Assembly (NCBI GenBank): GCA_010093815.1
Contig: ML996566.1
Length of the DNA: 64,000 bases
Direction: 5' to 3' (one strand)
Source of the DNA: Pseudovirgaria hyperparasitica
Lineage: Eukaryota
Each line of letters opens with the position of its first letter. Within the stretch, counting starts at the first letter, position 1. The position numbers and the translations under genes are program-made. Shown here piece after piece: positions 41,739-64,000 of this stretch. The notes under the pieces are model-generated. The model saw nothing but the letters and a program-made list of their open reading frames with translations, made no database searches and was not told the DNA's origin.

Positions 41739-42960
41739 CTATCTCGTCCAACAGCTCATCGCAATCGCCGCAACTTCTTTTGCTCTCGAGACAGGAGCTT
41801 CGTGCCCACCCTTGATAGTATGGAATTCAACGTCGGCGGCCCCAAAGAATTCCCGCGAATCTTCGATAAACTCGTCCTTCACCACGATGACATCGCTGTC
41901 GGGTAGAATGACACAAATCCTGCCACCGGTCAATCCTGGCGGAGCATTGACGGCTTTCCGTTGCCTCAACTCCGCAGCTAGAAGTCTCCATATTCTATCG
42001 TGACGTCGATAGACTAGCGCGCTGCGTATGGTGCTCAGATACGAGTTCACAAATCCTTGATTTGCACCCAGCTGCCAGCGTATTACGTCACCAATGGTCA
42101 CATTTGGCTTGGTTGCAGCGATGGAGACGTTGTCGAATTCCACGTCAGCGTGTCTGTCTTGGTCTGGAACGTCGGCGGACGGGGCGCCATTGCGCGGCTC
42201 TAGACTTTCACGGATATATCGCAGTCGGAGTACATCAGGTATCAACCCTGAAGAGTAAAGGAATCGACTCCGAGTGCTGATGTGCGATGTGCGAATTAAA
42301 CCTCCCGGGGCGATCAAAGTGAGAGATCGTAGCATCGATGCGTGGTAGGCAGCGAAGGCGACAGAGATAGAACCGCCAAGAGAAAAGCCAACGAGGTGAA
42401 AAGCGGCGATGCCTGACCATGGTAATGGGGAGGAGGCTAGTACTAGGAGTATTTGAGTCGTGTAAAGACGGGCGTCGTGCTTGAGGTCGTTTGGGGCATC
42501 AGAATATCCACGTCCAAATAGATCTGTTGGTAACGGTTAATCGCTGCATCGTCCCTGTTTTTGAGAGGAAAGGAATACCAAACATCATGACCCTATATCC
42601 TTTACTGACAAATTCTCTAGCCATATCGCCCATTGCAATACAAGGCGTCCCCAGACCATGCACTAAAAGTATCTTCTCGCCGTCTTCGGGACCCCATTCG
42701 AAGACTTGAATCGTGCCATAGATGGTTTTCACTTGTTGTCGCCCCGGAAACTCATCCATATCATACGGCAGGGCCGCATCATTGCCTCTTCGCTTCGGAG
42801 ACGCTTCAATCCTCGCTCTAGCAACCGTCGCCGTGTCTTCCTCGGGAGAATGCTGCACAGTCCTCAGTAACGGCCAAAGCTGTAGAATGACTCTCGCGCA
42901 GAGCGCAACGAAGAGCAGGGTCCACACAGAATTGCGTGAAGAGTCTACGGGGCTGCTCAT
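41739..42960 (-). CDS. Alpha/beta hydrolase with N-terminal hydrophobic segment, 1 intron (~42524-42578)
   Basis: LLVHGLGTP, FDLFGRGYSD across the intron, nucleophile LVGFSLGG, LIAPGG, C-terminal GGHE. Confidence 0.88.
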
Positions 42961-43299
42961 CGTGCAGTTGAATGTCGGTTACCGGGTACTCGACTGCATT
43001 GCTACGCCGAAGTGTAAAATCATTTCCTCGTGCCAGGGGCGCCATGATCAGACTCCGATGCACAACTATACCGCCCTGGGATGTCGTCAGCGCTGAATTG
43101 AGTGGGAGATAAAAATGGGTCGCTTGCCCGAGCCTCATGGCCTGCCGACTCCGATGATGGCCCATGCCGGAGAGTTCTGTGATAGTCCGGATCCACTTGA
43201 AATCCTCCGAGCCGGGCGGACCATCCGGACGGACAGCCGCGCGTTCGAAGTCAGCAAGTCTAGCCTTTTCTGTCCATATGGTCCAAATGACACAGTTGT

Positions 43300-43919: not shown

Positions 43920-46203
43920 TTACTTTGCCTTCTCCAGTGCCTTGTGTTTCCCATTGCTCAACTCGAAGTACTCCCGTATTCTCGTCCGGGCGACATTCAC
44001 AGTGTTGACGTCTTCGATCGTACTCGGAATTCCTACCTCCTTCTCAAAATCATTATTAACTCCATTCTCAAGCAACTCTCTGAGTACCCGCCGCAGAATC
44101 TTTCCACTTCTTGTCTTGGGGATAGTTCCGGAGCCTTGAATGATGCCGCCAAGTGAAGCAAAGGCCCCAACTTGTTCGCGCACCAATTTTTGTATCTCTC
44201 GGTAGATTTCAGAAGGTGGAATGGGCGACGAGTGGTATGACGAGGTAGAGAGCGTGATGAAGGCGAATGGCAATTGCCCTTTCAATGCGTCAGGAATACC
44301 CACAACGCAGGCCTCAATAACTAGCGGATGAGATATCACAGCCTGCTCGATGGAACCTGCTCAATTCGTGTTAGCAGATTTGGTTGCCTTGCCTGGAGGA
44401 TTGTCCTTGATCACGAGTGACGCTGGAGAAGGACTTACCACTGCTCAATCTGTACGCGCTTACATTAAGCACATCATCGTTTCTGCCCATCACCCACACA
44501 TACCCATCCTTATCAATCCAACCATTATCTCCGGTGTCCATCCATCGTCCGTTGAACCTTTCTAAGTAGCTTCTATAAAATCTTTCGTCGTTATTCCATA
44601 AATTGTGAAAAGCAGTAGGCGCGAGTGGTAACCCCAGAACAACGTTACCCATAGCACCCCTCTCAATCTCTTCGCCTGCATCATCTACTACCCGAACATC
44701 GAACCCGGGCATTGGTTTACCAGCGCTACCCGGTTTGCTGGACACGAGTGCATAAGATGAGGGATCCATCTCCGGCAATTCGAGCGCAAGATTGGGCATC
44801 AATGCGCCGCCGGTGATGGGACTGCCAACTTCTGTTGACCACCAATTGTCGATGCATCTGGCGTTGGGTGCCGCATGCTTCTCCAGTAAATGTTGGTAAG
44901 TCTCAATCAGACTCGGCTCGCTCCTCTCACCCGCCAGGAAAAGAGCGCGCAGCTGTTTCAGTCCACCCATCTTGCCGATGTGCTCAAGCATAGTATTCTC
45001 CGGATCATCGTTTCGTATTGCTCGAAGCGCAGTGGGCGCCGTAAACATCGTAGTTACACCATACTCCTTCACGACCCTCCAAAACGCGCTCGCATCTGGG
45101 GTACCTACGGGTTTACCTTCGTACAGCACTGTCGATGCACCCGCAAGCAGAGGCGCGTAGCAAATATAAGAATGCCCGACCACCCATCCGATATCCGATG
45201 CGGTGAAAATGACGTCGCCTGGACCCTGAATGTTGAACACAGAAGCAATCGATAGCGAAAGTCCAACGGCGTGGCCTCCTGCGTCTCGTAAGACACCCTT
45301 GGGAGTGCCTGTCGTGCCGGAAGTATACAGGATATACACAGGTTCAGATGAACCAATGGGCACACATGCGGCCTTCAACCGATCGTTCTTTGCCCTTTGA
45401 ACGACGTTTTGCCAGACTGATTGTTTTGTGGATGTCTGCAGGCCGATGATCCGTCGGAAAAATGACCATACGCGCGACCACCATGGCTTCGTGGTCCAGC
45501 GGAGTTGTGGGCGTTGCCAGATCCATACGTTCTCTGGTTTGTGAGATGAAAGGCGGATTGCTTTTTCTACCAAAGGCTGGTATGCGATCGCAGGTCGATT
45601 GCCGACGATTCCACAGGAGGCAGTAAGAAGAATCTTTGGCCTGCAGTCGTCTATCCGTTGAGCGAGGGCAGTGGGAGCAAAGCCACCGAAGACGACGGAA
45701 TGTATAGCGCCGAGACGATTTATGGCGAGCATACCGATGATAGATGCAGGAATCATGGGCACTGGACTACCTCGTGAGTGACACTACGCTATCATCTTGG
45801 TATTTGACGTACTGTAAAGCATTACCACGTCGCCTCTCCTGATGCCATATCTTCTCAGCGCTCCAGCCAGGGCCTCCACCTCTCTCAGAAGATTGTTGTA
45901 AGTGTACTTCTCTTTGACATGGGTGACCGGGCTGTGGTAGTAGATAGCGACAGTATCGCCATTGCCCGCAGCAACATGTCTGTCCACACAATTGTAGCAT
46001 GTCGATATTTCCCCACCCGAGAACCAGTCCCACGTAGGATGCGAAATGCCATTTTCAAGAGCTTTCCTCCCCTTCTGGAGTGCAACTTTTGGTTTCGTGT
46101 GCCAGAACAGCCGATCTGCTTGCGATAACCAAAACTCCTCTGGATTCTGCAAGCTTTCGCGCAGGACGTCGTCTTGGACGATTCTTTCTGGAACGCCAGC
46201 CAT
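43920..46203 (-). CDS. Short-chain acyl-CoA synthetase (propionate-CoA ligase PrpE/ACSS3-like), 2 introns
   Basis: WFSGGEISTCYNCVDRH, YILYTSGTTGTPKG, SDIGWVVGHSY, DNWWSTE, DTGD, GRNDD, PKTRSGKILRR. Confidence 0.93.
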
Positions 46204-47561
46204 TTCGACGTGAAAGGCAATATGTCAAGCTATGATGCTATGACGGCACGTAGGCCTTCATCTAAGGCAGAACATGCCGCCAATCATTTCGCCAGTGCAC
46301 GAAAACCGCGACGAAGCAATGGCCATCGAAAGCCTCCGAGCAGTGAGCGGTACAAGAAGCTAGATACCAATCGGCAATCAGAAGCCTCATGTGCATCCCA
46401 CTTGGAAGTATATGTTCAGGTTCGGATGCTTTCCACGGAGTGTTTATAACACTAAAGTGGAGCACACGTGACCGTAAAGACCTTTCTCGTAACTGCACCC
46501 AGTATGCCTGAGTCTATTACAAGGTAATCTGTTATCAATGAGAACTTCATTGATAAAAGTGGATATGGTTGGTTGGTCGTTTGATTCCTACTTGGTTCAG
46601 GCCGCGTTGTCCTCGCTGCTATGCCCGGCAGGAACGACTTGGTGAATAGCCGACGCGTCTTGCGTATGTAAAGCAGTAATTGTACTAAAAGCACCATAGT
46701 GCTCGGCTCCTTGAGGCTTTCGCCCTGCATGCTGATCCTTCTACCTAGAGACCCCCCCCGGTGCTTGATTCGACTACTCCTCTCTGACCCGGAACTGCCC
46801 AAGGGTCTCCGTTCGTTCTATGAATCTGATAGCTTTGGTGGCTAGCTTGCGCCCGTTCAATCTCGCTCGGCTCGGTGATCTCGTCTCCTGATGCTGGATC
46901 GGTGATAGCCGGGGTGGTGTTCGGAGACTGTTCAGTCTCTTGTTCTTGCCCACTTAGCTACCATTTGATTGTGCCGGTTCTTAGTGTGCTTGACATATTG
47001 AATTGTTCCATGATATCTAGCAACTCTTCTGTCTCGCGATCTGTCAGAATGGAGTCGGGTCGACACATATGTACAGCAATCAATCCTTTTCTCCTTCTAT
47101 CTCTTTTAGATTCAACTGGCGTAGAGAATCACGTGGTGCTCTCATACGATCTGTCCGGACTACTCGTGATCCTCCTTATAGCGGATGATGGAGGTTGAGG
47201 ACACCTAGGTCTATATGTTCTTCCTGATGATGTCCCACCAATGCATTGCGAAGGGTTAGAATGGATATGTGCAAATACGAAACAAAATGCCATTCCGCGA
47301 TTGCTATCACGTGTTTGACCCTAGCTCTATTTTAACTCTTTCGATTGTTCTTTGACCTAGGCACAGATTTTCGCCGAATACGACTATGCACGAGTATGTT
47401 GAAAGATGAGGTTGCAGGAGTAACTCATTGAATTGAATTAGTTGTAAGTCGTTAAGAGAGAGAGACTGCAGAAGCTATTTAAGTGGTTGGCCACTAGTCC
47501 CAATCAGGAAGCTGGCCCTCACTATGGAGCCCCTTTTAACACAGTACTTACTCACTTACAA

Positions 47562-48613
47562 TCAATTCATCCAGTCTCTCATGCCTTTTTCCATTAATTT
47601 TTCACTAAACCGCTGGTTCTCTTCTAGGTGATGATTGCCAAGGAGGTTGGGATAGAGGCTTTCCAGTACCACCTCTCTCGTTTGCACGCTTGACTCTACT
47701 TGAGTTTCGCTGATGGCCACAATCTCCACGATATTGCCATCGCCATACTTGGCCTCTGTCAAGATCTTGAAGATCTCTTCTGCTGCTTGTCCTTGCGTTA
47801 AGCCGATACTGCATTGCGTTAGCCAAAATAATCTCCTGAGCGGCGAGAAGAATAACTCACTCGGTTGGAAGCAGCTGGTCTCTGCAATAGTCTTGATCGA
47901 ACAGTGGAGTCTGGAGTACGTCAGTGTATGCGCACTGGAAAGAGCTGTCCTATGGCACATACTTTCGTTGGGCCAGGACATGCTGCAGCATTTCGGATCC
48001 CAAACATCTGCCTTAGAGGGCCAAAGCTCTTGGCTATACTGATGATGGCTGCTTTACTGCTACAATACAGTGGAGTCTGCATCATGTGCACATAGCCAGT
48101 CACACTGGCTACCCACATCAGATTTCCTTGAATGTCCCGGTTTTGCAGCCAATAATCCATTGCAATTTGCGACAATCGGATTGGAGCCATGGTATTGATA
48201 GCAAACAGCTTGTAGACTCCAGGATTGCAATCGACCGAGTCACTCGCGTGTGGTGAGATACCGGGAGCGTTCCAAAAAGTGCTCCATGGAGGCTCGTAGA
48301 CCGCTGCTCCGTTGACTACGATGTTGACTTTGCCAAAGGCTGCCACTGAACGGTCAAACAGGCTCTGCAGCTGCGCCCAGTCTGCCAGGTCTGTTTGCAA
48401 GAAGATTGCAGATGGTTTACCGGCGTCCGGTGCTGGGTGAGGGTACTTTAAGAGTGTGGCCTCCGCCTCCGGACGCAGTCGCAGATCAACCATAACCACA
48501 GAACAACCATTCTGCAACAAGATCTCCGTCAGCGCATGGTTGATACCGGATCCAGCCCCTGTGACAATAGCGACTTTGTCTTCAACATCGTATGCGGTTT
48601 GGTGTGGAGCCAT
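47562..48613 (-). CDS. Short-chain dehydrogenase/reductase, 2 introns
   Basis: VAIVTGAGSGIN, VVNGAAV, catalytic YCSSK, ACPGPTK|TPLF. Confidence 0.92.
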
Positions 48614-49121
48614 TGTAGTGTGTTGAAGTTGTGGCTGTATTGGATTATCGAGAAAGCCTCGGGCGGTCTCAATAAGGCGTGAAGCCACGATCACCCGGCT
48701 CTTGTCATTATGCCACGACCGTAGATGCTGCTCGCGTAATTATCAGGGTAGTGGCCCTCCAATTTTCTCAGTTTAACCCCCCGAGGTGGCACTCAATACC
48801 CTCCGGGTTCCGAATCACCCAGACAGCGGTGCTCATTCTCACGAAGGGACCGACTGTATCGGAGTGCTTCGTAACCGACTATACCATTATCGTAGCCTGG
48901 CGAGCTCCAGAATGCAAATATTGGGTATGCACATTGTCAAACGCCATCTGGTCTTGCGATACGAGGTCGCATTTTCTATCCCTGCCTGTCATTTCCGGGG
49001 ATAACAAGCATGTTGCGAAACTTCTGCAGCCTGTAGATAGACCAGAACCATTCCAGGAAAGCAATCCCCGACTCAGCTTGCGCACTAAAACTCAACTGCA
49101 ACCGCATAGAGCTTTGTCTTC

Positions 49122-51113
49122 ATGGCTCAGGCACAACCAGTCCAACCTGTTGTGGACGTCGTCACAAATGCTACCGATCATGGACCTTGTCATGTAGCAC
49201 AATCTAAAAATGCTTCTGAAGAGGCCGAGAAATTGCAGAAGAAGTATGAGGAGGAACGAAATAAACGACTCCGGTCCGACGGCCTCTCACAGTATCTCAA
49301 CCTGAGCTCTACAGAGAACCCAAAAATACGCCGCTACCTCGACGATCCTTGGGACGACGGATCTATCTCTTCAATTCCTTTGCAAGATGGTGCTCACACC
49401 AAAATTCTTATTGTGGGTGCCGGTTTCGGAGGACTTATGTTTGCTGTTGAGCTCATCCGAGCAGGAATTCCACATGGTGACATTTTGATGGTCGATCAAG
49501 CCGCTGGGTTTGGTGGTGCATGGTACTGGAACAGATATGCGGGCTTGATGTGCGATGTCGACAGTACTGTCTATATGCCTCTTTTGGAGGAGACAGGCTA
49601 CAGAGCAAAACACAAATATGCATATGGTGAGGAGCTGCGCGAGCACGCCGAGAGGATTGCTACCAAGTACAAATTGAGAGATCGTGCCATGTTTCGAAGC
49701 GAAGTCCACAGTTCTCAGTGGGATGACACTACGAAAATGTGGAAGCTGAAGCTTACACAGCGCTCTCCCAATTCGAACGACATTTCCGCTGCCGTAAGCG
49801 CTGACTTCGTCATATTCGTGCCAGGGCTTTTCACGCGCCCAAAGGTCCCCAATTTGTCGGGTCTAGAAACCTATTCTGGCAAAAGCTTTCTCACCTCGCG
49901 TTGGGACTACGAAGTAACAGGCGGAAACCAAGAAAACCCTTCTCTCGAAAACTTACGAGACAAACGGGTCGGCATCATCGGTACTGGCGCCACAGCCTTA
50001 CAAGCTGTTCCTCATCTCGCAAAATGGAGTAAGCATCTGTATGTCTTCCAACGCACGCCATCTTCCGTGGATGTTCGCCGCCAGAAGACCATCACCGACG
50101 CGGAATGGGCAAATGTCACCAAGTCTGGACCTGGATGGCAAGCAGTACGGAGCAGAAATTTTACGTCCTTCACAGCTCGCGTTGAACCGTTGCCAGAAAT
50201 CGACATGATCTCCGACGGATGGACTGATTTCCCATCGTACCACGTCCTTACTGGTGGTGGGAAGCCCGTGACGTCAGAAATGGTAGCAGCACATATTGCC
50301 GACTCACACCGTTTGGATCTTCCGCGCATGGAGAGAATTCGCGCGCGGGTCGATCAAGAAGTCAAGGACCCAGCTGTTGCTGAAAAACTTAAACCCTGGT
50401 ATGCGGGATGGTGCAAGCGGCCCGGCTTTCACGATGACTATCTTTCGACCTTCAACAAACCCAATGTCGAGCTCATCGACACAGCGGGACGAGGAGTGGA
50501 TGCTATCACCACGACAGGTGTGCAAGCAAATGGGCAAGTATACGATGTGGATGTCCTCATCTTCTCCACAGGCTTCGAATCTGGCTTCCATTTAGACCCT
50601 GGATCTCGATGCGGAATCGAAGTCATCGGGCGGGAAGGGCGACGAATGGCGGATAGATGGGAGAAGGAGGGCACGGCAACACTACACGGTATCATGAGCC
50701 GTGGCTTCCCCAACTTATTCTTCACTGGAACACCGCAATCCGGAGTTTCGCCCAACTATACCCCCTCGCTGGAGATCTTTTCGCGGCATACGGCCTACAT
50801 CATTTCCGAGGTTGAAAAGAAGCGAGCAGTGCTCCCAGAATTGAGAGTCGCGGCAGAGCCTCATGCGGATGCTGAGAAGGCTTGGGTGATGGGCGTGCTT
50901 GCCGGGGCATATTCACTGGCTCCACTGGGTCATTGTACACCGTCATATTTCAATGCGGAGAGTGATGTAACAAAGCTACCGATGGAAGAACAAGTCAAAG
51001 GTGCTGTAACGGCAGCTTGGCCGGGAGGTATAAATGACTATCTGGATATACTCCAAGCTTGGAGGGAAGCTGGTGATCTTAGTGGACTAAGCATCACACT
51101 GACAAGTAAATGA
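49122..51113 (+). CDS. Baeyer-Villiger-type FAD/NADPH monooxygenase (663 aa, intronless)
   Basis: Two Rossmann motifs GAGFGG and GTGATA, GGAWYWNRYAGLMCD, fingerprint-like YSGKSFLTSRWD, WCKRPGFHDDYL, FSTGF, CTPSYFN. Confidence 0.95.
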   Translation: MAQAQPVQPVVDVVTNATDHGPCHVAQSKNASEEAEKLQKKYEEERNKRLRSDGLSQYLNLSSTENPKIRRYLDDPWDDGSISSIPLQDGAHTKILIVGAGFGGLMFAVELIRAGIPHGDILMVDQAAGFGGAWYWNRYAGLMCDVDSTVYMPLLEETGYRAKHKYAYGEELREHAERIATKYKLRDRAMFRSEVHSSQWDDTTKMWKLKLTQRSPNSNDISAAVSADFVIFVPGLFTRPKVPNLSGLETYSGKSFLTSRWDYEVTGGNQENPSLENLRDKRVGIIGTGATALQAVPHLAKWSKHLYVFQRTPSSVDVRRQKTITDAEWANVTKSGPGWQAVRSRNFTSFTARVEPLPEIDMISDGWTDFPSYHVLTGGGKPVTSEMVAAHIADSHRLDLPRMERIRARVDQEVKDPAVAEKLKPWYAGWCKRPGFHDDYLSTFNKPNVELIDTAGRGVDAITTTGVQANGQVYDVDVLIFSTGFESGFHLDPGSRCGIEVIGREGRRMADRWEKEGTATLHGIMSRGFPNLFFTGTPQSGVSPNYTPSLEIFSRHTAYIISEVEKKRAVLPELRVAAEPHADAEKAWVMGVLAGAYSLAPLGHCTPSYFNAESDVTKLPMEEQVKGAVTAAWPGGINDYLDILQAWREAGDLSGLSITLTSK

Positions 51114-51603: not shown

Positions 51604-52020
51604 ATGGCCGCATCTGCACCTGCCTCGGGCGTCTCGCGCCACATCACCGTCTACATCAAGCCCGAGCACGCCAGCACGTTTCTCGGAGCATTCAAGACCC
51701 TCTTCGACCAAGTAGTCACCAATCCCGAATGCAAGTTATTCGAGGTCTACCGAGATTCCAAGGAGCCCGGTGTCTTTCACTGGGTCGAAGACTGGTAAGC
51801 AGGGTCACCGGCGTCGACGACGAATAATCAAATCTTGCGAGATTACTAAAAAAAAAATTATGGCAGGGATGGAACTGCCGAGTGGCTGGCCGCTGCACAG
51901 GAGGGCAGTGAGGATTACAAGAAATGGCTGGCGTTTGAGGAGACGCTGTATGCGAAGCCGAGAGAGGAGCGCATTGTGGAGAGGATGGCAGGTGATTTCT
52001 TTCACGTGAACAAGGCATGA
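51604..52020 (+). CDS. Small ABM / dimeric alpha-beta barrel protein (114 aa), intron 51795-51866
   Basis: HITVYIKPEHASTFL...EPECK-like NPECKLFEVYRDSKEPGVFHWVEDW|DGTAEWL...YAKPRE. A GTAAGC...TACTAA...GCAG intron restores a complete ORF that the ORF track misses. Confidence 0.8.
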
Positions 52021-52488
52021 GTAGAGAAAGAAGAGGAACCAAGACGTTGCGAGATAGTTTGCCATGGCAGGTGTTCCATGCTCAATCCCTTCTATCGCCT
52101 AGAGGCCAACTACACATTTTGGCTGCAAAAAATATGTACATCGTGTTTGTCCTTCGTATAGTCATCAAATCTAGTCCAGTTACACATTTCCACCATAAAG
52201 AATTCTGTAACCCGTGATTTACCACCGCATAGTCATTGAAATCTTACCCGGGCTGCGGTGAGAATGGTCGTGGGCCGGAGATCGGATGTAATATAAAACC
52301 CTCCGAACGGGTGGATAGCGCTCCCGAACCACCTTATGCTCGATTCTGATTGGCTTGCAAATATTCTCAGCAGTCCAAGGATTTGCAGACACTTGGTTGA
52401 TCAGTTGTCCCTTTGGTAAGATCCAGTCAAGCTAAACTGGCAAGGCGACGTTATTCAGTCAGTCACGAAGTAACAGTCATTCATCACG

Positions 52489-54255
52489 ATGCTCAGCACA
52501 ATTTTATTAGTCATTGCGAGTATCCTACTCTTCTTCTACTTTTCCTATCGATGGGCATTACCCAGACCTATACCAGGGATTCCGTACAATGCCTCGTCTG
52601 CAGGCAAGGTGCTTGGCGATGTGCCGGACCTCCTCAACGAGCTCGCCTTGACCGGCGATATGGTGCAATGGCTCTTGAAGCAGAACTTGAAGACCCAGTC
52701 ACCGATCAGTCAAATCTTTGTGCAGCCACTGGGGAAACCATATGTGCTGGTGAGCGATTGGCGCGCTGCGCGAGATGTCATGATGCATCGGTCCAAAGAA
52801 TTCGACCGATCGAGTCTAATCACCAATCTTTTCGAGGGCCTGCTTCGAAGGCAGCAGTTCACGCTGCAAACCGGCGCAGAGTGGAGGGCGCATCGATTCT
52901 TGGTGCAGGATACCATGACCCCTGCGTTCTTGAACAAGATGTGCGCACCGGCAATTTATGCCCGCAGTCTGGATATGGTGAAGCTGTGGACGATCAAGGA
53001 AAGACTTGCGGGCGGAAGACCATTTAGAGCAACCGACGACATCTTCCATGCAACCTTCGACGCCGTCAACAGCTTTTCCTTTGGCGAGCAGTTCCAGCAC
53101 AGTTCGACGCGGCCACATATCGAATTACTCGAGAAGGAAGAACCAGAGCGCATCCAGGAGGGCCAGGATATCAATGCCCCGGTTGAATTCCCCAAGGCCC
53201 ATATCGACCCATCCCTCGATGCCATGCTCGAACTGTCCGAGATAATGGAAGCTGTCAAAAACGCCCCTTCGCCCTCCCTGCAATGGCGCTGGACTAAACT
53301 CACGCGTTCGTTCCGCCAGCACACGGCGTTGAAGGATGCATGCCTCCGGACGGAGATCTCCAAAGCCGTGCTCCGGGCCCAGCGGCGCGACGAGCGCGGA
53401 ACACCAGCAGGACACGAGGAAAAGGTGGAGGAACCCAGCACGAGCACCATCCGCTCTGGTATCGATGTTATCATCGATCGTGAAACACGCGTCGCAGCCA
53501 AGGAACAGAGAGCGCCGGACTACACCTCCCAGCCCATCATGGACGAGCTCTTCGGTTTTGTAGTCGCCGGCCATGATACCATGTCCACGACTCTCTGCTG
53601 GGCTGTGAAGTTCCTTGCTGACAATCCCGGCACCCAGACCAAGCTACGCCAAGCACTTCGTGTCGCTCATGCAGCGGCAGTGAATGAGTCTCGCGCACCG
53701 GCGGCAGAGGAAATTGCCAGCGCCAGGATTCCGTACCTGGAAGCAGTCATGGAAGAAGTGCTCCGGTGCGGCTTGACTGTCCCAATCGGCGATCGGGAGG
53801 TGGTCGCGGAGAGCGGAGCTGACCTCCTCGGTTATCGTATCCCAAAAGGCGTGATTGTTTTCTTCTTGCACAACGGTCCGGGTATGCGCATTCCGGAATC
53901 CGACGCAAACATTGCAAAGTACGGCACCGAAGCTGGCGCTCTACACGGTGGTAAAAAAGGAGGCATTGCTCCATGGAGCGATGATGATATAACAAACTTC
54001 AAGCCAGAGCGGTGGTTATCGGACGATGGTAGCTTTGACGCACAAGCAGGGCCAAGCATGCCTTTTGGGCTGGGCATACGCGCCTGTTTCGGAAAGAGAT
54101 TGGCATATTTGGAGTTTCGAATTTTGTTGACGATGATGATGTGGCATTTCAGCTTAGGACCGTGTCCGGAGGAGTTGAGTGGATATGCAGGGCAGTTGGC
54201 GGTGGTACATAAGCCTAGAGTGTGTTATGTCAGGCTGGAGAGTATCACGAAGTGA
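52489..54255 (+). CDS. Cytochrome P450 (588 aa, intronless)
   Basis: N-terminal TM plus ALPRPIPGIP, I-helix AGHDT, EEVLR, FKPERW, heme motif FGLGIRACFG. Confidence 0.97.
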   Translation: MLSTILLVIASILLFFYFSYRWALPRPIPGIPYNASSAGKVLGDVPDLLNELALTGDMVQWLLKQNLKTQSPISQIFVQPLGKPYVLVSDWRAARDVMMHRSKEFDRSSLITNLFEGLLRRQQFTLQTGAEWRAHRFLVQDTMTPAFLNKMCAPAIYARSLDMVKLWTIKERLAGGRPFRATDDIFHATFDAVNSFSFGEQFQHSSTRPHIELLEKEEPERIQEGQDINAPVEFPKAHIDPSLDAMLELSEIMEAVKNAPSPSLQWRWTKLTRSFRQHTALKDACLRTEISKAVLRAQRRDERGTPAGHEEKVEEPSTSTIRSGIDVIIDRETRVAAKEQRAPDYTSQPIMDELFGFVVAGHDTMSTTLCWAVKFLADNPGTQTKLRQALRVAHAAAVNESRAPAAEEIASARIPYLEAVMEEVLRCGLTVPIGDREVVAESGADLLGYRIPKGVIVFFLHNGPGMRIPESDANIAKYGTEAGALHGGKKGGIAPWSDDDITNFKPERWLSDDGSFDAQAGPSMPFGLGIRACFGKRLAYLEFRILLTMMMWHFSLGPCPEELSGYAGQLAVVHKPRVCYVRLESITK

Positions 54256-54365
54256 GCGATCGGTTCAAAGATCATCTCTCATCATGTCGAGTCAGATTCA
54301 TCCGTTAGAAAATCGTTTCGTTCGTGAGCTTCATTCTTATATACCCACGATATCATCATGTCTCA

Positions 54366-55782
54366 TTAGTATGACAAGTCTAGGTACTTTGCACCGTCAA
54401 AGGTCTTCTTGCCTCCATCACTCTTCCAGATCTCGACTTCACATCCACCCATCAGGACACCCACACGCATTGTAGCAAGCAGGTTGTGAGCGGCATTACT
54501 GTGATCGTAGATACCTTTGTTGAACAGAGCCGTAGCGTCTTTGCCAATGGCACTCTTGATCAATGCTTGGCCGCCAGGATGCTCATTGATGAAGCTCGAG
54601 ACGTCGTGGATGACTCCAGCAATTGAGGTTAGTGCTTTGCCTTCAGACCAAGCTGATTCAACAAAAGCATCCCATGTGTACACCGGTAGTTCATTGAGTG
54701 GTGTACCCCAGTCGAGCTTTGCGCGACGGACGTCAAGCTTCTTCTGCATTTGTTGTAATCTGCCCTTTTCCACCTCGTTCGAGCGGAACTGCTTAAGATG
54801 ACTGGCAAGGCCAAGTTTACCCCAGATCGTGATCATCCTGTGTTTAATCAGTGTAAGTTCCAAACGTAAAGGCTGTGCGATGGGACATACCACTTCGTAG
54901 GATCGTACTGGTACCACTCAATCGCATTGCGAAAGTCAGAGGGAAATTCATGGTGATAATTGTGATACCCCTCGCCCAGAGTGACTAATGCAGTAATCCA
55001 ATTATCGCGTGGTGAGTTGCGGTCGTCAAATGGTTGGTCGCCAAGCCAGTGAGCAAGACTGTTTATGCAGAAGGTCGCTTGCTGTACAAAGCATGCGCGA
55101 ATGATTCCAGCGTACACCAAACCACCGAGCATGTCTCCCCAGATCCCGCACACCAGAGCAGGGAAAATGAAAGCCATGCTGAGCACGCACACTAGGTAGT
55201 GCTTGTGTTGCCACCGGACAATTGGGTCCGAATTCAAATCGACAACGTCAGCTCGGCCAATCTTCTTTGCATCTTGGTTGAGTACCATCCAACCAATGTG
55301 AGAATACATAAGACCCTTGCGGACAGAGTAGGGGTCCTTCTCGGTGTCTGTGTAACGGTGGTGTGCTCGGTGGCCGCGTGACCACCAGCGGATTGAGCCT
55401 TGAACGGAGCCGGCGCCGACCGCGGCAAGATATATCTGAAGGGGAAGTGAGGCTTTATACGAAGTGTGAGCCCAAAGGCGATGGTAACCTGAAAAGAAAT
55501 TGTTAATTGACAGCTTGAACGAGAGACGTGCATCTGCGGATTACCAGCTGTGATACCGAGGCCGGTATTGAAATAGTAGAAGACGGCGAAAATAGCCGTG
55601 TAGAGCCTCAGAGGTACGAAGAAGGTAGCGATGAATCCATATAACGGGATAAGGACGACAAAAATGACATTCAGCCAATTGATATGCTTATACCAATTGG
55701 ATCGAGTCCATGGCTCATCGCTGATATGAGGCTTTCGTGTTGCTCCATCGGTTGTAGTTGACAAGACCTTTGAGACTGTCAT
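54366..55782 (-). CDS. OLE1: Delta-9 acyl-CoA desaturase fused to cytochrome b5 (OLE1-like, 435 aa); introns 55489-55544 and 54838-54890
   Basis: His boxes [18 protein letters not shown] and [27 protein letters not shown]; b5 domain HPGG and [11 protein letters not shown]. Spliced exons 238+598+472 nt give an open frame. Confidence 0.95.
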
Positions 55783-55958
55783 TATGGGTGATATCAAGAA
55801 AGTCGTTGGCGGGAATGAGAAGCGGAGGTGGATATATGGGCGGAGGAGAAGGAAAGAGACAGAATCAAAATGTGAAGCGTTGGAAGGTCATTTACTCACA
55901 TTTACATATGGCGGAGCATGGGAATTCAAACATGTCGTTGGGGTTGGGGAAGTTGAAA

Positions 55959-56051
55959 GTGGGGCCCGAGTGTTTCCTTGCAACTTGTGAAGTTGGCTGT
56001 GACCGCGGACGTGGTTCTGTTGAAAGTGGAGCCAAGTGGGGCAAAGTGGGG
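55959..56051 (+). promoter_or_regulatory. Four AAGTGGRGC repeats matching the CreA/Mig1 SYGGRG consensus, upstream of the desaturase
   Basis: GTGGGG 55959, GTGGAG 56026, GTGGGG 56036, GTGGGG 56046; the last three are exactly 10 bp apart. Confidence 0.45.
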
Positions 56052-56076
56052 CAAGAGCGGCAATCGATCCGATTCC

Positions 56077-56299
56077 CACTAAGTCCGACCATAAGGCCTA
56101 GTGTCTTGGCTGATTTTACAGTAACAGCAACTAATTACCTGCATCAAACGAATCACATCATAGAAATGCAATTAATCCAACAATGCTCACTAAACCCTAT
56201 CATAAGGCCATAGTGCCTTAGCTACACCAGACGAACCACATTATAGCATGGTAATCGATCCTTACTAAACCCTATCAGAAGGCCTAGTGTCTTGGTTGA
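56077..56299. repeat. Three imperfect ~36-bp direct repeats between the enoyl reductase stop and the desaturase start
   Basis: ACTAAGTCCGACCATAAGGCCTAGTGTCTTGGCTGA (~56078), ACTAAACCCTATCATAAGGCCATAGTGCCTTAGCT (~56189), ACTAAACCCTATCAGAAGGCCTAGTGTCTTGGTTGA (~56264). Confidence 0.8.
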
Positions 56300-56320: not shown

Positions 56321-57633
56321 CTACATTAGACGTACCACCAGTTTTTGCGCGTGGACTTCTCCCGCCTTGAGCATTTCCAGGCCCTGGATGATGCTCTCCC
56401 ACCTGCCATGTGGCTCGTTGGACAGCTCTCGAGGCGGGTGGCACTTGAGCTGTCCATGATCGACGAGCTGCTGCACTTCGTCCCGCCAGCGTTGTCCAAG
56501 CTCCATTTTGGTATGGTCGGCGTCACGATGATAGGCTCCTTGGAGCTGTACCTCAGAGCCAAAGAGGGTATATCCCAGAGGGAAATCAATCTTGACAGCT
56601 TTGCGCGTTCTCCACGCGTCGGGAATATGGTCTAGGGCACTGATGCGCGCACCGGCCCGCCCCAGAGCTTCGAAACAGGTCGCTACCGATTCTGGTGACG
56701 TAATGCAGTCGATGGCGTATCGTAGGGTGCCCTTCGTCTGCTCCTTGATTGTGTCGCCGCACGAAGGAGCGGTGTAATCGATAGTGCTGACGGCTCCATA
56801 GCTTTTTACCAGGGTTGAATTGGCGGGAGAGACTGTCGCAATAGGATCGCATCCGGCACTGCAAAGGAAGAATGTCAGCTCTGTTCTGGCGCTTGTCCAT
56901 TTTGGGTCTAGCGCGTTGACTCATCATATATCGTACATCGCTTGGAGGTTTCGTTCTCAACCTCGTCTCGCACCTCACCTCCACTTCTTTCATCTCCACC
57001 ACACCACACACGAAAGCACCAACAGCACCTTACCTCGCTCATTCGATATGGGTAAGAAAGTCTCTGCACATACCTTGCTAGCAGTTGACAAGCCATAGTC
57101 CCTGTTGCGGTCGCCCCCCCGGAGACCAGGACCACTGGTCGCTTGCCGTCGGCTCGTAGGTTCATTTCCGCGTTGGATGGACGTCCTGCGAGCTGGAGAG
57201 ATTTTTCAATTGCCAACGCCACTGTCCCCCATCCAACGCCTCCTAGTGCTGCAGCTTCTTTGTCGCTCCAGGTGTCGGGAACTTTGATGAGCAACCGGCT
57301 GTCTGCGACAAGGAACTCGGCGAATGAACCAATGTCGGGGTTCCCAGGGTTAGATCCGTGAACGAAACCGCATACGCGCTGCCCAACTTGCAACCCTTCA
57401 GTGGAGGATCCGGTCGAGACAACTGTCCCCGTGAAGTCGCAGCCGATGATAGCGCCAGGCTTCGGATTGGATTCTGGAGACTTGAAGTCCGTTGGGTTCA
57501 AGGCAACAGCAGCGACCCTGACTAAAACATCATGCGGTTTTCGTATTTGCGGTATAGCATGCGTCTGCGAGACAATTGGCTTCCTCGTACCATCAGAAGA
57601 CTGGATTAGACACTCCATAATGTGAGCGGCCAT
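56321..57633 (-). CDS. Trans-acting enoyl reductase (LovC/CcsC/TenC type MDR), intron 56859-57073
   Basis: VAAVALNPTDFK, GCDFTGTV, GSFAEF, VLVSGGATATGTMACQLL, YGAVSTIDY, YAIDCIT, GLEMLKAGEVHAQKLVV. Confidence 0.93.
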
Positions 57634-58571
57634 TTTGTGCTTTCTTGAGTTCAGTATGGATCAGACTGGCCCTGGTAGCTATAAGAAAGCCAAAAAATCA
57701 CTTGTCAATCCGAAAGCATGTCGGAGGCACCAAGAAGCAGTACGGTGAATTTCTCTGGTTTCGGAGCCTTTCGCGGGAGCTATCACGTCAATTACATCTC
57801 CCGTTCGAACATGTATCCCACTAATAGCTTTCTAGTGTCTTTTACACAGCCTCTCAGCTGACATAATTCCGGCAACAAAAGCTAATGCGTGGTCCTATAT
57901 CTCCCATCCACATTTAGGTGAGAGTACTGTTGTTAGACATGATTAATAGATATGACTCGGAAACGTGCTATACTATCCTAGCCTCTTCTAATATTCTATT
58001 ACTTTACTAGACTGTTATTCTGATTCGTTCCTCAAAAGAATGGAGGTTGTAATGGTCACCCTCCATTACGCTTATGTTACCGGAATTATGTCGGCTGATA
58101 GCGCAGCCTTATTATGCCTTGGATTACTATATAGACTAGTGCTAAATCGTAGTTGTAGGATCTGTTTCCTGGTCCCTGTGTGGGACTTTTTTTTCGAGAC
58201 TCGGTCCTCTTGGTATAATTGGTTGGTGCATGGAGCTCGGCCTCTTACAGAGGAATATATAAGGAGCGGTCTCTCCATGTATTTGGTTCTCGCTCTATCT
58301 AGTCTTTACCTTAAGAACTATAATCTATCTTCTCTATTATATGATAGTCTATGTTAGTATATATTCCATTACTAAGGAATATTATCCACCCCTTTACCTG
58401 TCCTTTTTACATCCTCTATATATATGTAAGACTTCATACAAGCCCTCCGATGGCCTGCCCATACCTCCATCTTAATGTATCAATCGATTGATCTAACGAC
58501 TGAACTTACTATCATTAGAATATCAAAGGGTCTTCACATTTGTCTACACAAGGGTGACTTCGCTTTTCAGC

Positions 58572-59933
58572 ATGCCTAGCGGCCAGATCGCCAAAAGGTC
58601 CGCTTGTGACCGCTGTCGAGATCTCAAACTGCGCTGCACCCGAGAGCAAACTGCGGATGAACATGTTCCATGTGATCGGTGCACCAGGTTCGATGCGCTT
58701 TGCATTACGGGTAGTGGTCGGCGATTAGGGAGACCATCGGTGGAGAACAACGATACTCGACCCATCCGAAGGAATTCTTCAAATCATCAACATCGCAACG
58801 ACCGCAATTCGTGGCAGAGGTTGAATCATCGACCTTTGACGACGAACAATACTCTAGGTCCTCCCAGGCCAGACAACCCTAAGAACGACAACCTTTACAG
58901 ACTTGCAGACTCGGACTTCTTTTCAGACCCGAATCTCGATCCTATGTTGTATGAGTCTGACTTCTTGGGGGGTTCTTCCAGTGCAACTCCAGCCAATAAC
59001 GCAAATGGAAACGGCCAACTGCCAATGACCCTCGGTATTGATACATCAGATTTACCAGACTTGGATGTCGACAGTCCATGTGACATGACTGCCCTGAGTT
59101 CATCCACTATGCCAGCGCTGGCGAATCCTAACAAGAGGCCTGCTTCACGGAATGATTCTGGTATTGTCCTTAATCAATCTGCAGAGGCCGACTCTTCATC
59201 CCTAGCAGGAGTTATCAGTGACACTTCGCGTCAGTTATTTGAGCTGAGAAGCAAGGCGCAGCATCACTCACTCGAGACAATGCTGGATCAACGCAGCGTT
59301 AGTTCAGATATAAATGCCGTATCTCGACAGCTATCCGACCTAAGAAACCGAGCTAGCGAGTCATCGATTGATTCAATTATGACCTCAGCAGGCATAGCAC
59401 ACGACTTTGCGAGATTCAATGACCCCATCAAGACAGGACCTCTCGAGAGCATGCTCTCGACGTCCATGCGTTTCATCCTTGTCTTGCAAATGCTTGCACC
59501 CGCGGAGTACGACACGGGTAGCACATCACGTCCAAGAACGAGCAGCAACTCCACAGCTCTAGACACCATGCTTATGCTCCTCTCGATATACGTACGCCTT
59601 GGCCAGTCCTTCGAGCATGTCCTTAACGGGGTGGTGCAGAACCGCAACTTTATTTCGTCAGGCTCCCAGCCTTCTTCGCCGGCTTCAACGTACAATCAGC
59701 AGTATTCAGCACAGTTGATGATGGTAGTCCGTGCTTTAGGACATCAACTGTCCACCGTGGAACGACTGATGGGTATTCCCGCGAGAGTTAGACTCTGGGG
59801 ACCGAAAGATGACTATCCGGGTATCTTGAATCAAGACCAGTCATTTTTGACCAAGGCGGCGATCTCCCAAGCCCAAGAAACGTTTTATTCGTTACGAAGA
59901 ACTATGCATGATATCGAAATTTCTTGTACATGA
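58572..59933 (+). CDS. Zn(II)2Cys6 pathway-specific transcription factor
   Basis: RSACDRCRDLKLRC...PCDRCTRFDALC...RRLGRP at the N-terminus; first ATG at 58572; located inside the cluster. Confidence 0.93.
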   Translation: MPSGQIAKRSACDRCRDLKLRCTREQTADEHVPCDRCTRFDALCITGSGRRLGRPSVENNDTRPIRRNSSNHQHRNDRNSWQRLNHRPLTTNNTLGPPRPDNPKNDNLYRLADSDFFSDPNLDPMLYESDFLGGSSSATPANNANGNGQLPMTLGIDTSDLPDLDVDSPCDMTALSSSTMPALANPNKRPASRNDSGIVLNQSAEADSSSLAGVISDTSRQLFELRSKAQHHSLETMLDQRSVSSDINAVSRQLSDLRNRASESSIDSIMTSAGIAHDFARFNDPIKTGPLESMLSTSMRFILVLQMLAPAEYDTGSTSRPRTSSNSTALDTMLMLLSIYVRLGQSFEHVLNGVVQNRNFISSGSQPSSPASTYNQQYSAQLMMVVRALGHQLSTVERLMGIPARVRLWGPKDDYPGILNQDQSFLTKAAISQAQETFYSLRRTMHDIEISCT

Positions 59934-60875
59934 GCAAGGGAGGCAAATCGGACACCAGATTTTTGTTTGTAACATTCCTGATCGCCACAGCTCAAGACAA
60001 ATCCAATGCATATCAACGTGTTTGAACAAAAGTTTGGCTTAGATCTCAGTGACTTTCGAAAAGCCCTAGCCAGAATGCCAAATGTACACTGCAGTAAGTC
60101 AATGTCAGGACTGGGTTTTGGATTGATTACCTATGATTCACACCCAGGACAAGTCATTCCACTTGGAGGAGACTCCTCCCTGCGTCAATTGCCAGTCACG
60201 AATGACTCGATTGTCTAAAACCTCCACGTTCGCACGCCATTCGACCCCACTAAGTGACGTAGAAACAAAACCAGGTGTGGTTTATACCTCCTTCTAAAAC
60301 ATGATTTATGGACCCCTGCGTGAAGCCCGGCCGAAGTGTCAGCTAGAATTTTTCAGCTTCAGCGCGGATGGCTGCGACCGATGAATGGTTGTGGAGATCA
60401 CGCGCGTAGATTACAGATCTCTAACCCTGCACGCACGAGGGCCTCAGAATTGCTTTTTATCCATTTTGAAAACTCTGAGTCGGACGGTTTGCTTGGAAAT
60501 TTGTGTAAATCCTCCGACAGGCCTCGGGTAGGGACATCGGAGGGTTTGCGCATAACGGCTGTCACGATTCCGGTAGCTTTTAATACGGTATCGGATCTAT
60601 CTGAACGGGGCATTCCCAGCGCAGAATCTTCTCCTTGCCCGTGGTTCGCCCTGATGCAACGGGTCGGATAACAAGGCTTTCTAAACTAAAGCACTAAACA
60701 GTTAAGGGACTGACATGGTCTCTATTGCACCACCGCCACCAATCTTCGACGAATATACTATGGGATCTCTGTTATATCATCCTAATTACTTAGATCTTAT
60801 TAAGCCCTAGGGTTATATACATAGAGTATAGCTAGATTAGATAGGAACGCTAATTACTCTTCCATACACACCAAC

Positions 60876-63800
60876 ATGCCTCACCAAACTTCAACACCAG
60901 CGAAGGGAGTACCAGAACCAATCGCAATTATTGGTAGCGGTTGCAGATTTCCTGGCGGCGCCTCTTCTCCCTCCAAACTATGGGATCTCCTACGTGAGCC
61001 GCGTGACGTACTGAACGAGATCCCTCCCTCTCGATTCGACACTAAAGGCTTCTATCACCCAAACTCGAACTTCCCAGGTCACGCAAACGTCAGACATTCG
61101 TATCTCCTTGAGGAGAATGTCGCGGATTTTGATGCTCAGTTCTTTGGCTTTAAACAGGCGGAAGCCTCAGCTATGGACCCGCAACAGCGGATTCTGCTTG
61201 AGGTCGTGTATGAGGCCCTTGAGGCATCAGGTTTAACGATTCAAGGTCTGAAAGGCTCTCAGACCGGTGTCTACTGTGGAATGATGTACGGTGACTACGA
61301 ATCCCTCCAATATCGGGATCTACAGAGTGTACCTACATATCATGGACTCGGTAAGTTGTAGTTCAACCCTTAAATTCGTGACCCAGAACAATGCTAAGGG
61401 AGAATCTATCAGGAATTGCGAGAAGTATTGTGTCAAACAGAGTCTCATACTTTTTCGATTGGCATGGTCCGTCGTGGACTGTGGACACTGCGTGCTCCTC
61501 TAGTCTGGTCGCTCTGCACTCAGCAGTACAGGCGCTGAGATCTGGAGAGGTGCCCATGGCTGTTGCGGCCGGTACCAATCTTTTACTGGGCCCAGAGCCT
61601 TACATTTACGAAAGTAATCTGCAGATGCTGTCACCTGATGGCCGGTCTCGTATGTGGGATCAGGATGCTAACGGGTACGCTCGCGGTGACGGTGTTGCCT
61701 GCATAGTCGTCAAGACGCTGAGCCAAGCGTTGGCAGATGGTGATCACATCGAGGCTATCATACGTGAGACGGGCGTTAACAGTGATGGGCGCAGTCCAGG
61801 CATTACAATGCCAACGATGAAGGCGCAAGTCGCACTCATCAAAGAAACGTATGCCCGAGCCGGGCTTGACATAACTTCCGCGAAGGACAGATGTCAATTC
61901 TTCGAGGCCCACGGTACTGGAACTCCTGCAGGGGACCCTGTAAGTAGCCGTAGTCAATTGTGCCTATCTGTCGAACGAGGGATTACTGATAAGTTATAGA
62001 TCGAAGCCGAAGCTGTCCACACAGCATTCTTCGGCCATCTACCTGTGTTAAAAGACAACGAAACGACAGAAGACCAGAAAGAGAGCCTCCTAGTAGGATC
62101 GATCAAAACTGTGATCGGGCACACCGAGAGTACAGCTGGAATTGCTGGTATCCTTAAAGCGGTACAAGCCATTAAGCATGGCTATGTGCCCCCGAATATG
62201 CATTTCAAGAATTTGAGCTCCCGGGTAGCTCCGTTCTACAATAACCTTCAGATCCCTACCGAATTAACTCCTTGGCCGCAGCTGGAAGAAGGTCTGCCGC
62301 GCAGAGTATCAGTCAACTCTTTTGGGTTTGGAGGGACTAACGCTCATGTCATTCTCGAAAGCTTCGATCGTAGTGCGGTTGCTATCCAGAAGCGCCCATT
62401 GTTCTCGCCCTTTGTGTTCTCAGCACAGTCAAAGCAGGCACTTGCTGGAAACTTTTCATCTTATATGAATTATCTCGACCAACATCCTGATGTAGACGCG
62501 TCAGACCTAGCTTGGATGCTCCGTTCCAGACGATCACACTTACCTCTACGAGTGTCCTTCCCAGCCTCATCGACAGCGCAGTTACAGGCCACTCTAGAGA
62601 AACTGACGGCGAACTTTCAGCTGGAACCCAAGACAACACCTGTTAATCGCCAGACAAAACTCCTCGGTATATTTACTGGTCAAGGTGCTCAATGGCCGCG
62701 TATGGGAGCGCAGTTGATCGAACAGTCTCAACACGCTTCCAACATCCTCGCTGAGCTTGATCAGGCACTTGCGGAGCTTCCCTTGCACCGCCCTACGTGG
62801 ACATTGCGCGAAGAGATCCTCGCCGATGCCGCATCAAGCAACGTCATGAAAGCTAGCGTTTCGCAGCCTCTTTGCAATGCAGTTCAAATTCTCCTTGTCG
62901 ATCTGCTCAAACTCGCTGGGATCGAGTTCTCTGTCATAGTGGGACACTCTGGAGGAGAGATCGCTTGCGCCTACGCCGCTGGAAAACTCTCAGCGCGCGA
63001 CGCCATTCGCATCGCCTACTATCGCGGCCTTCACTCCAATCTCGCATGTGGCCAAAATGGTGTCCAGGGTGCTATGATTGCGGTGGGTACAACTCTTGAG
63101 GATGCAGAGGAGCTTTGCAGTGATGAAGTTTTCGAAGGAAGAATTAAACTAGCCGCTTGCAATTCTCCGTCGAGCATGACCCTCTCTGGTGATGAGGATG
63201 CCATTGACGAAGCTATTGAAGTTCTGAAAGACGAAAAGAAATTTGTGCGGAAGCTTCGAGTGGACAAAGGCTATCATTCGCACCACATGATCCCATGTGC
63301 AGAAGAGTATCTGAAGTCAATGAAGAGTATCTCCATTGACCAGACTCGCAATACCAATGCAGGTTGCACATGGGTGTCAAGTGTGTTCCCCGACCAGCCT
63401 TGGGAGGAGATGGGTAAGATCGACAATCAATATTGGGTGGACAATCTTCTGTCTCCAGTTTTGTTTAAGCAGGCTATCGAGCGAGCGGCATCTTTGGGAC
63501 CATTCGATGCTGCTATCGAAATCGGTCCCCACCCATCTCTGAAAGGCCCTGTACGAGAAACGTTACAGGATTTGAAGGTTGAAATAGCATATACTGGTAC
63601 GCTTAAGCGAGGCGAGAGTGACATTGCTAGCACGTCCGAAACTCTTGGTTACCTCTGGACCCAGCTGGATCATCTGGACATTGATTTCGACCGATACGAG
63701 AGCACTTTGACTGGGGGAACATCGCACGACTTTCTTTCAGACTTACCCCTATACCAGTGGAATCACACCCAGTCTTACTGGCACGAGTCCAACCAGTCCA

Positions 63801-64000
63801 AGAACCTACGCCGACGAAGTGAGCCCGTTCATCCGCTCTTGGGTGATCTCCTACAGAACAGCACCGCAAACAACCTCACGTGGAAGAATTTTCTCCGGCC
63901 ACAAGATCTGCCATGGATCCATGAGCATCAGATCCAAGGGCAAAGCGTGTTCCCTGCCGCCGGATATGCTTCTACAGCTATCGACTCGGCCAGATATGTC
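60876..64000 (+). CDS. Iterative highly reducing PKS or PKS-NRPS hybrid, 5' part (KS-AT-start of DH), truncated by window end; introns 61351-61412, 61940-61999
   Basis: [84 protein letters not shown]...[14 protein letters not shown]. The frame is open from 62000 to the end. Confidence 0.96.

Follow-up and report, generated by a model that had tools for sequence, protein, structure and literature searches.

The desaturase gene and its product

Positions 54366 to 55782 of a 64,000-nucleotide stretch of contig ML996566.1 (assembly GCA_010093815.1; the whole stretch is referred to below as the window) from Pseudovirgaria hyperparasitica contain a gene for a delta-9 acyl-CoA desaturase fused to cytochrome b5, a member of the Ole1/SdeA family with intact catalytic motifs. 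The host is a Dothideomycete of the Acrospermales and a parasite of rusts. The coding sequence lies on the minus strand, reads from the ATG at 55782-55780 to the TAA at 54368-54366 and fills this locus exactly. Three open frames are joined via two GT..AG introns of 56 and 53 nt, giving a coding sequence of 1308 nt and a protein of 435 amino acids (aa). The exons are as follows (TM, transmembrane segment):

55545..55782, minus strand: exon 1, Met1 to the first base of codon 80; short N-terminus, TM1-TM2
54891..55488, minus strand: exon 2, di-iron core with His boxes 1-3 and the Asn/His ligand pair; Gln109, Ile221, Asn242
54366..54837, minus strand: exon 3, hinge, cytochrome b5 domain (HPGG), short C-tail, TAA

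The resulting protein is identical in every letter to XP_033604297.1 / KAF2761846.1, 'stearoyl-CoA desaturase [Pseudovirgaria hyperparasitica]'. Its desaturase part contains the His motifs HRLWAH (82-87), HRAHH (119-123) and HNYHH (255-259) as well as the ligand pair within NSLAH (222-226), and its b5 part contains HPGG (365-368) and the second heme His within YDHS (389-392). Pfam matches were obtained for FA_desaturase (PF00487, 7.8e-21) on exon 2 and for Cyt-b5 (PF00173, 4.7e-19) on exon 3, and the core could be aligned to mouse SCD1 (4YMK) with an E-value of 2.4e-61.

An earlier note, made from the letters of this DNA, had described a complete desaturase-b5 fusion at 54366..55782; the coordinates proved exact, and all three His boxes and the HPGG motif are present. 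The note had also placed the gene within a polyketide synthase (PKS) cluster, between a cytochrome P450 and a trans-acting enoyl reductase (trans-ER). This placing was confirmed: the desaturase lies between the P450 and a trans-ER-like reductase, and 5 kb separate the start of the PKS from that of the desaturase.

Relationship to housekeeping desaturases

A search with exon 2 found 7360 proteins at E ≤0.001 among 7986 candidates, and the best 120 were listed. The top non-self matches are short Sordariomycete proteins, led by Apiospora arundinis (450 aa, 86% core identity) and including Ustulina deusta (448 aa) and Pestalotiopsis fici (442 aa). Desaturases of ordinary length (465-481 aa) rank after the short ones, at 74-81% identity.

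A first tree was built from 72 of the 120 listed rows, those with an organism name, with 48 rows left out. The window protein groups with the Apiospora and Ustulina proteins (SH-aLRT 96) inside a larger group with P. fici and Xylariales sp. PMI_506 (98), apart from the Dothideomycete clade (99). After addition of cluster members (93 rows), nine short proteins form a single group, here called clade A (98). When the window protein was forced together with 14 Dothideomycete housekeeping proteins (46 rows), the log-likelihood (lnL) was 94.9 lower and the placement was rejected by the approximately unbiased (AU) test (p = 4e-5). The terminal branch of the window protein measures 0.35-0.45, compared with medians of 0.06-0.11. 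The grouping with short Xylariales paralogues (SH-aLRT 96-98) and the rejection of a Dothideomycete placement show that the cluster desaturase is not the ancestral OLE1 and was not inherited as this Dothideomycete's own gene.

Three species, Truncatella angustata, Pestalotiopsis sp. 9143b and sp. IQ-011, have both a short clade-A protein and a long form on record. Clade A is therefore a second copy in these species.

Residues changed in the cluster copy

The window protein was compared with 63 housekeeping rows; five rows (P0012, P0016, P0026, P0035 and P0120) had been dropped beforehand as partial, over-long or long-branched. Sites conserved to at least 97% in the 63 rows were taken as near-invariant, which gave 205 sites with the following changes:

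Window protein: 13 of 205 changed (192 kept)
Other clade-A members: 6-13 of 205 changed
Eurotiales cluster copies (6 of 19 counted): 4-7 of 205 changed (198-201 kept)
Housekeeping rows sampled: 0-4 of 205 changed

The median core identity of the window protein to housekeeping proteins is 73.6%, compared with 78.2% between housekeeping proteins of different classes. With 192 of the 205 near-invariant sites kept, the window protein is predicted to carry out delta-9 desaturation of C16/C18 acyl-CoA. It resembles a functional enzyme of this type that carries a few changes near its substrate tunnel, and its conservation close to the housekeeping level would fit an enzyme that still performs the housekeeping reaction.

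At sites 42, 109, 221, 242 and 408 the residues Ile-Glu-Val-His-Arg are found in 60 of the 63 housekeeping rows. Site 109 alone is Glu in 62 of them and Gln in one; the window protein has Gln. Residues common to clade A are Val42, Gln109 (eight of nine members), Ile221 and Asn242, and the short Diaporthe proteins carry Ile221 and Asn242. Gln109 together with Tyr408 occurs in 19 of 19 Eurotiales and Conoideocrella rows, the Eurotiales proteins keeping Val221 and His242 of the housekeeping type.

In the alignment to mouse SCD1, Gln109, Trp115 and Thr218 of the window protein correspond to Gln143, Trp149 and Thr257, the numbering offset having been checked on all three; Ile221 adjoins the Asn ligand. 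According to the available text of a preprint (bioRxiv 10.1101/2020.11.09.373951), which cites the crystal-structure paper for these residues, hydrogen bonding between Gln143, Trp149 and Thr257 of SCD1 produces the kink that places C9-C10 at the di-iron centre, and loss of the Gln-Thr bond may allow product exit. Both ends of the window protein are short. The core is preceded by 24 residues (clade-A median 18, Eurotiales copies 25, housekeeping median 42), and the C-tail comprises 24 residues (clade-A median 29, housekeeping 46).

Conserved association with a P450 and a PKS-NRPS

The P450 adjacent to the desaturase matched 68 proteins at E ≤0.001. A tree of 28 rows was calculated from the window P450, all 13 matches of at least 48% identity, an Aspergillus campestris cluster member and 13 picked lower matches. 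It contains a 15-row orthologue group (100/100) in two branches, a Sordariomycete-type branch and a Eurotiales branch (100/100). Within the former, the window P450 stands beside Paramyrothecium (KAI9150468.1; 94/85), followed by Astrocystis (KAI0199477.1), Xylariaceae and Nemania (KAI1127278.1). One P450 labelled Lasiodiplodia mahajangana (P0249, on a 20-kb contig), a Dothideomycete by name, is nested in Nemania (Xylariales) with support of 100/98, which may reflect mislabelling, contamination or transfer.

In each of the eight named Eurotiales species holding the P450 orthologue, the accession numbers of the P450 and of a delta-9 desaturase follow each other directly:

Penicillium atrosanguineum
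Penicillium samsonianum
Aspergillus taichungensis
Aspergillus candidus
Aspergillus campestris
Aspergillus carbonarius
Aspergillus thermomutatus
Paecilomyces variotii (four strains)

A fused PKS and nonribosomal peptide synthetase (PKS-NRPS) is encoded three (P. variotii) and five (P. samsonianum) accession numbers away from the pair. The order in P. variotii is desaturase DTO166G4_4841, P450 _4842, one further gene and PKS-NRPS _4844 (4049 aa); in P. samsonianum it is P450 N7471_007775, the desaturase next to it and PKS-NRPS _007780 (4054 aa). The P. variotii synthase (P0376) has the domain order KS-AT-DH-MT-KR-ACP-C-A-T-R with no ER, and shares 53% identity with the window PKS across 667 aa. 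A desaturase thus stands next to the P450 in all eight Eurotiales species, and the gene has been retained in a family of PKS-NRPS clusters that spans two classes of fungi. Its absence from related clusters, which the earlier note would have counted against resistance, was therefore not what was observed. Outside the Eurotiales the pairing has so far been seen only in the window. Since both the window P450 and the window desaturase have Sordariomycete affinities, a joint arrival of the two genes is suggested. A metagenome scan with the P450 alignment was uninformative: the one locus recovered, L001, has a 43% relative along with three P450 genes, a subtilase and no desaturase.

We considered whether the Eurotiales desaturases of these pairs are simply housekeeping SdeA. 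In Aspergillus niger, the cluster-type desaturase P0056 groups with A. felis and A. thermomutatus of section Fumigati (100/100) and not with the clade of A. carbonarius, which belongs to the same section as A. niger. P0056 presumably lies on the same contig as the 4077-aa PKS-NRPS known from one record of this species. Finally, a 15-member desaturase cluster includes A. felis and A. thermomutatus and has no A. fumigatus member, although Table 1 of a 2025 review (PMC12345192) gives SdeA orthologues within Aspergillus an identity of about 92-94%. Because of the grouping of P0056, its singleton status together with the probable sharing of a contig with the PKS-NRPS, and the missing A. fumigatus protein, identity with SdeA was rejected as unlikely. 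P0056 being a singleton in the protein collection and the PKS-NRPS (P0390) coming from one record, the cluster seems to be present in only some A. niger strains.

Constraining clade A, both short Diaporthe proteins, Conoideocrella and the Eurotiales copies to a single group improved the lnL by 38.4 units over the free quick search (p-AU 0.89); the group was defined with the data already in view and includes long branches. The result permits a single origin for all these copies but does not demonstrate it. In Conoideocrella luteorostrata (Hypocreales), the desaturase P0046 branches as sister (100/99) to the whole set of Eurotiales cluster copies and has their Gln109/Tyr408 signature, a placement that may reflect transfer between classes.

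Transcription of the cluster

Four public sequencing runs cover the stretch, and their contigs were aligned over 44001-64000. Two of them, X1 and X2, are DNA runs from which the assembly may have been made. X3 and X4 derive from one other sample and study and were read as RNA solely because their contigs are spliced: they show 13 joints with GT..AG or CT..AC ends, which occur in no DNA contig. Both desaturase introns (54838-54890 and 55489-55544) appear as exact joints in X3 and X4 and in neither X1 nor X2. Spliced contigs also span the acyl-CoA synthetase, the short-chain dehydrogenase/reductase (SDR), the monooxygenase, the ABM-domain gene, the P450, the regulator and the PKS. The whole cluster including the desaturase is transcribed in the one RNA sample. 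Joint expression of desaturase and PKS, whose absence the earlier note would have counted against its resistance reading, was seen in so far as both genes are spliced in this sample, the contigs giving no levels. In X4, the word depth of the contig carrying the P450 and the desaturase is 483, compared with 8-14 for the PKS contigs, but contig depth cannot rank genes.

The surrounding genes

To delimit the cluster, 73 stop-to-stop frames of at least 130 aa in the window were scanned against Pfam, and some of them were followed further. The left part of the window contains housekeeping genes (a four-repeat ion channel, tubulin, a NatA subunit, phospholipases), and gene content typical of a cluster begins at about 38.8 kb and extends rightward. 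The domain assignments below rest on Pfam and the introns on RNA contigs (MFS, major facilitator superfamily; MDR, medium-chain dehydrogenase/reductase):

32766-34879: NatA subunit gene, housekeeping
38767..40362, minus strand: MFS transporter (TRI12-like), probable left cluster edge
41739..42978, minus strand: alpha/beta hydrolase with GFSLGG nucleophile motif
43920..46224, minus strand: acyl-CoA synthetase of the ACAS_N plus AMP-binding type; introns 44355-44436 and 45762-45812 (Pfam, RNA contigs)
47562..48739, minus strand: short-chain dehydrogenase; introns 47809-47860 and 47911-47962 (Pfam, RNA contigs)
49122..51113, plus strand: FAD/NAD(P)-binding monooxygenase
51604..52023, plus strand: small gene with an ABM domain (PF03992, 2.9e-06), flanked by the flavin monooxygenase and the P450; one intron at about 51794-51865; transcribed
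52489..54255, plus strand: cytochrome P450, single exon, 588 aa, convergent with the desaturase
56324..57660, minus strand: MDR-family (ADH_N plus ADH_zinc_N) enoyl-reductase-like gene, candidate trans-ER
58572..59933, plus strand: Zn2Cys6-like regulator (weak Zn_clus match, E 0.002, below the Pfam cut-off); 5' leader intron 58426-58518
60825..64000, plus strand: 5' part (KS-AT-DH) of a highly reducing PKS, cut by the window end; introns 61350-61411 and 61940-61999

The window PKS is probably a PKS-NRPS of about 4000 aa. The earlier note had labelled it 'PKS(-NRPS)'; the PKS portion (KS-AT-DH) of this label is seen directly, while the NRPS half would lie beyond the window and is supported indirectly. 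An RNA contig from X3 extends 4.68 kb past the window end from the PKS, and the homologues are PKS-NRPS proteins of 4049-4077 aa. A search with the PKS fragment among proteins of 1169-3335 aa, a range that full-length PKS-NRPS proteins exceed, gave no self match. The arrangement may correspond to a trans-ER layout, with an MDR gene in the window, the window PKS seen only as KS-AT-DH and the homologue P0376 without ER. A cytochalasan-like or pyrrolinone product was considered on account of the hydrolase, the flavin monooxygenase, the P450 and the terminal R domain of the homologue, and was dropped, as no named family found tested support.

Three plus-strand GT..AG joints in RNA contigs (57050-57098, 57621-57836 and 58426-58518) overlap the minus-strand reductase gene and suggest either a long spliced leader of the regulator or antisense RNA. 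A 215-nt minus-strand joint (56858/57074) was seen at low depth in X4. High-copy repeats lie between cluster genes at 58008-58674 (core at about 58250-58322), 46769-46857, 57851-58102 and 60777-60854; in the DNA runs the word depth of the repeat stretches reaches 10608 and 6875 compared with about 316 and 276, and many other contigs match them at 80-95%. Far from the cluster, amid housekeeping genes, is a tyrosinase-domain gene (17863-18843, minus strand, 2.2e-48).

Possible functions of the cluster desaturase

The reading that we favour, tentatively and at somewhat less than an even chance, is that the cluster desaturase is a self-resistance copy of the Ole1-type enzyme on which the cluster product would act. 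That product would be a reduced, lipid-like compound of polyketide and amino acid that would block the substrate tunnel of the fungal delta-9 desaturase, and the cluster copy would keep making oleoyl- and palmitoleoyl-CoA yet be insensitive, possibly through the Gln that replaces the fungal Glu at the tunnel-kink residue. We infer enzymatic activity, the existence of an inhibitor and the mechanism of resistance. Our slight lean towards resistance stems from the near-housekeeping conservation, from the lipid-like product expected of a PKS-NRPS with a trans-ER, and from a published parallel in PF1163A-type clusters described below. A resistant second copy had already been proposed in the earlier note. 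In favour of that proposal, the gene is non-ancestral, is kept in related clusters and is transcribed, but these findings do not separate it from a pathway desaturase.

Several points weigh against resistance. Gln109 could be a lineage trait of the Eurotiales and not a mark of cluster copies, the comparison having been made without a bona fide Eurotiomycete SdeA. The housekeeping OLE1 of P. hyperparasitica was not found: among the members listed for four Dothideomycete desaturase clusters (15 of 61, 13 of 13, 1 of 1 and 1 of 1), none is from this species. Over 54366-55782 the DNA runs, aligned at 80% likeness, have the depth of one contig and reveal no near-identical second copy, a comparison that a paralogue of about 70% DNA identity would escape. 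Expression was seen in a single sample under a single condition, in contigs that give no levels. No desaturase from the six holders of the P450 orthologue outside the Eurotiales appears among the 120 desaturase matches listed. Conversely, the clade-A relatives in Apiospora, Ustulina, Pestalotiopsis, Truncatella, Xylariales sp. and Hypoxylon have no P450 orthologue among the 68 P450 matches, so that clade A is not bound to this type of cluster; the P450 relative in Truncatella reaches only 36% and lies on another contig. The acyl-CoA synthetase of the cluster and the conserved pairing with the P450 fit a biosynthetic role equally well. Lastly, the available text of the 2025 review (PMC12345192) names no fungal metabolite that inhibits Ole1.

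In an extended form, which we regard as doubtful, the resistance reading would cover the whole cluster family. PKS-NRPS clusters distributed patchily in Eurotiales, some Sordariomycetes and this rust hyperparasite would make a lipid-mimicking inhibitor of Ole1/SdeA, each with its own insensitive desaturase whose determinant would be the Glu-to-Gln change at the kink. The cluster would have reached Pseudovirgaria from a Sordariomycete, and the fungus may direct the compound against the rusts that it parasitizes.

A serious competitor, nearly as likely as resistance, is a role in the pathway itself. The desaturase would introduce a cis double bond into an intermediate or precursor that resembles a fatty acyl-CoA, and the adjacent P450 would then oxidize the chain, the two acting as a tailoring or precursor-supply module. 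P450 adjacency, kept in the eight Eurotiales species and in the window, is expected for sequential enzymes, and an acyl-CoA synthetase is encoded in the cluster, although by Pfam it is of the short-chain ACAS_N type. The change at the kink residue and Ile221 beside the Asn ligand could shift chain length or position. Canariomyces, which has the closest named PKS homologue (in a 59% cluster), is a genus absent among the P450 matches, so that the pair behaves like an optional module. On the other hand, an enzyme that had taken on a new substrate would not usually stay so near the housekeeping level of conservation. Ordinary oleoyl-CoA is already abundant, so that dedicated supply seems unneeded, and the literature search found no PKS-NRPS pathway with a delta-9 desaturase.

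We consider it improbable that the gene is a physiological paralogue, one more delta-9 desaturase that serves membrane adaptation and is comparable to SdeB of Aspergillus nidulans, which would lie in the cluster or travel with it and have no part in chemistry or protection. Several delta-9 genes per genome are common, such as the four of A. flavus and sdeA/sdeB of A. nidulans (PMC12345192, available text), and clade-A proteins occur in Xylariales with no P450 orthologue among the 68 matches. The X4 depth of the P450 and desaturase contig compared with that of the PKS would also agree with such a gene, depth being a poor measure. Against it, an association with the same P450 and PKS-NRPS family in two classes would be hard to keep unselected, and the Sordariomycete affinities of both window genes suggest that they arrived together. 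That the gene is the sole housekeeping OLE1 of the genome and stands beside a PKS cluster by chance is highly unlikely: no second copy has been demonstrated in this genome and the gene is well represented in the RNA contigs, but the AU test, the long terminal branch, the 13 changes at near-invariant sites and the shortened N- and C-termini all argue against it.

Comparison with known systems

Fungal clusters are known to carry copies of the target of their product, such as HMG-CoA reductase with statins, IMPDH with mycophenolic acid, DHAD with aspterric acid and CYP51 with restricticin. Sterol-C4-methyl oxidase and Erg3-type enzymes are membrane di-iron proteins, as are Ole1 enzymes. The earlier note knew of no characterized cluster of the present composition, and our full-text literature search agrees with it, having found none of this composition and none with a delta-9 desaturase. 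The word 'desaturase' did not occur in the main texts of papers on self-resistance or PKS-NRPS genome mining, whose supplements may list candidate targets.

In the available text of the 2025 review, the delta-9 desaturase is presented as a promising antifungal target, and synthetic inhibitors as well as the natural compounds sterculic acid and EV-086 are named (PMC12345192). The present cluster may make, or need protection from, a compound acting on this target. A conserved cluster with its own desaturase copy offers a testable route either to a delta-9 desaturase inhibitor or to a new desaturase-dependent tailoring step. Related clusters exist in tractable moulds, namely Paecilomyces variotii, Aspergillus carbonarius and an A. 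niger strain, and the common change at a tunnel-shaping residue provides a single-residue hypothesis for mutagenesis.

The window protein shares with Ole1/SdeA the domain order, the three His boxes, the Asn/His pair, the HPGG-containing b5 domain and the hinge length, and is 65-67% identical overall to housekeeping proteins of other classes. It differs in not being the orthologue of the host lineage, in its shorter ends, in Gln at the kink and Val42, Ile221 and Asn242, and in its location inside a secondary-metabolite cluster. Like SdeB of A. nidulans (PMC12345192), it would be an additional delta-9 gene with a b5 domain beside the main one. SdeB, however, is described as a growth and temperature paralogue, with cluster context unmentioned in the available text of that review, whereas the window protein belongs to a separate Sordariomycete-type group.

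Within the cluster family, the Eurotiales clusters resemble the present one in that the desaturase, the P450 orthologue (51-53% identity) and the PKS-NRPS (53-55% over KS-AT-DH) are encoded close together, but their desaturases form a separate Eurotiales group with Gln109 and Tyr408 and with Val221 and His242. PF1163A-type clusters, likewise PKS-NRPS clusters bearing copies of lipid-pathway enzymes, carry sterol-C4-methyl oxidase and Erg3-like copies, which the authors regard as probable self-resistance enzymes in the available text (PMC11731387). The difference is that here the target would be Ole1, with putative resistance and with no published cluster found. The desaturase therefore belongs to a known kind, the cluster-borne copy of a primary-metabolism enzyme, of which a delta-9 desaturase version appears to be new and makes a good, testable lead.

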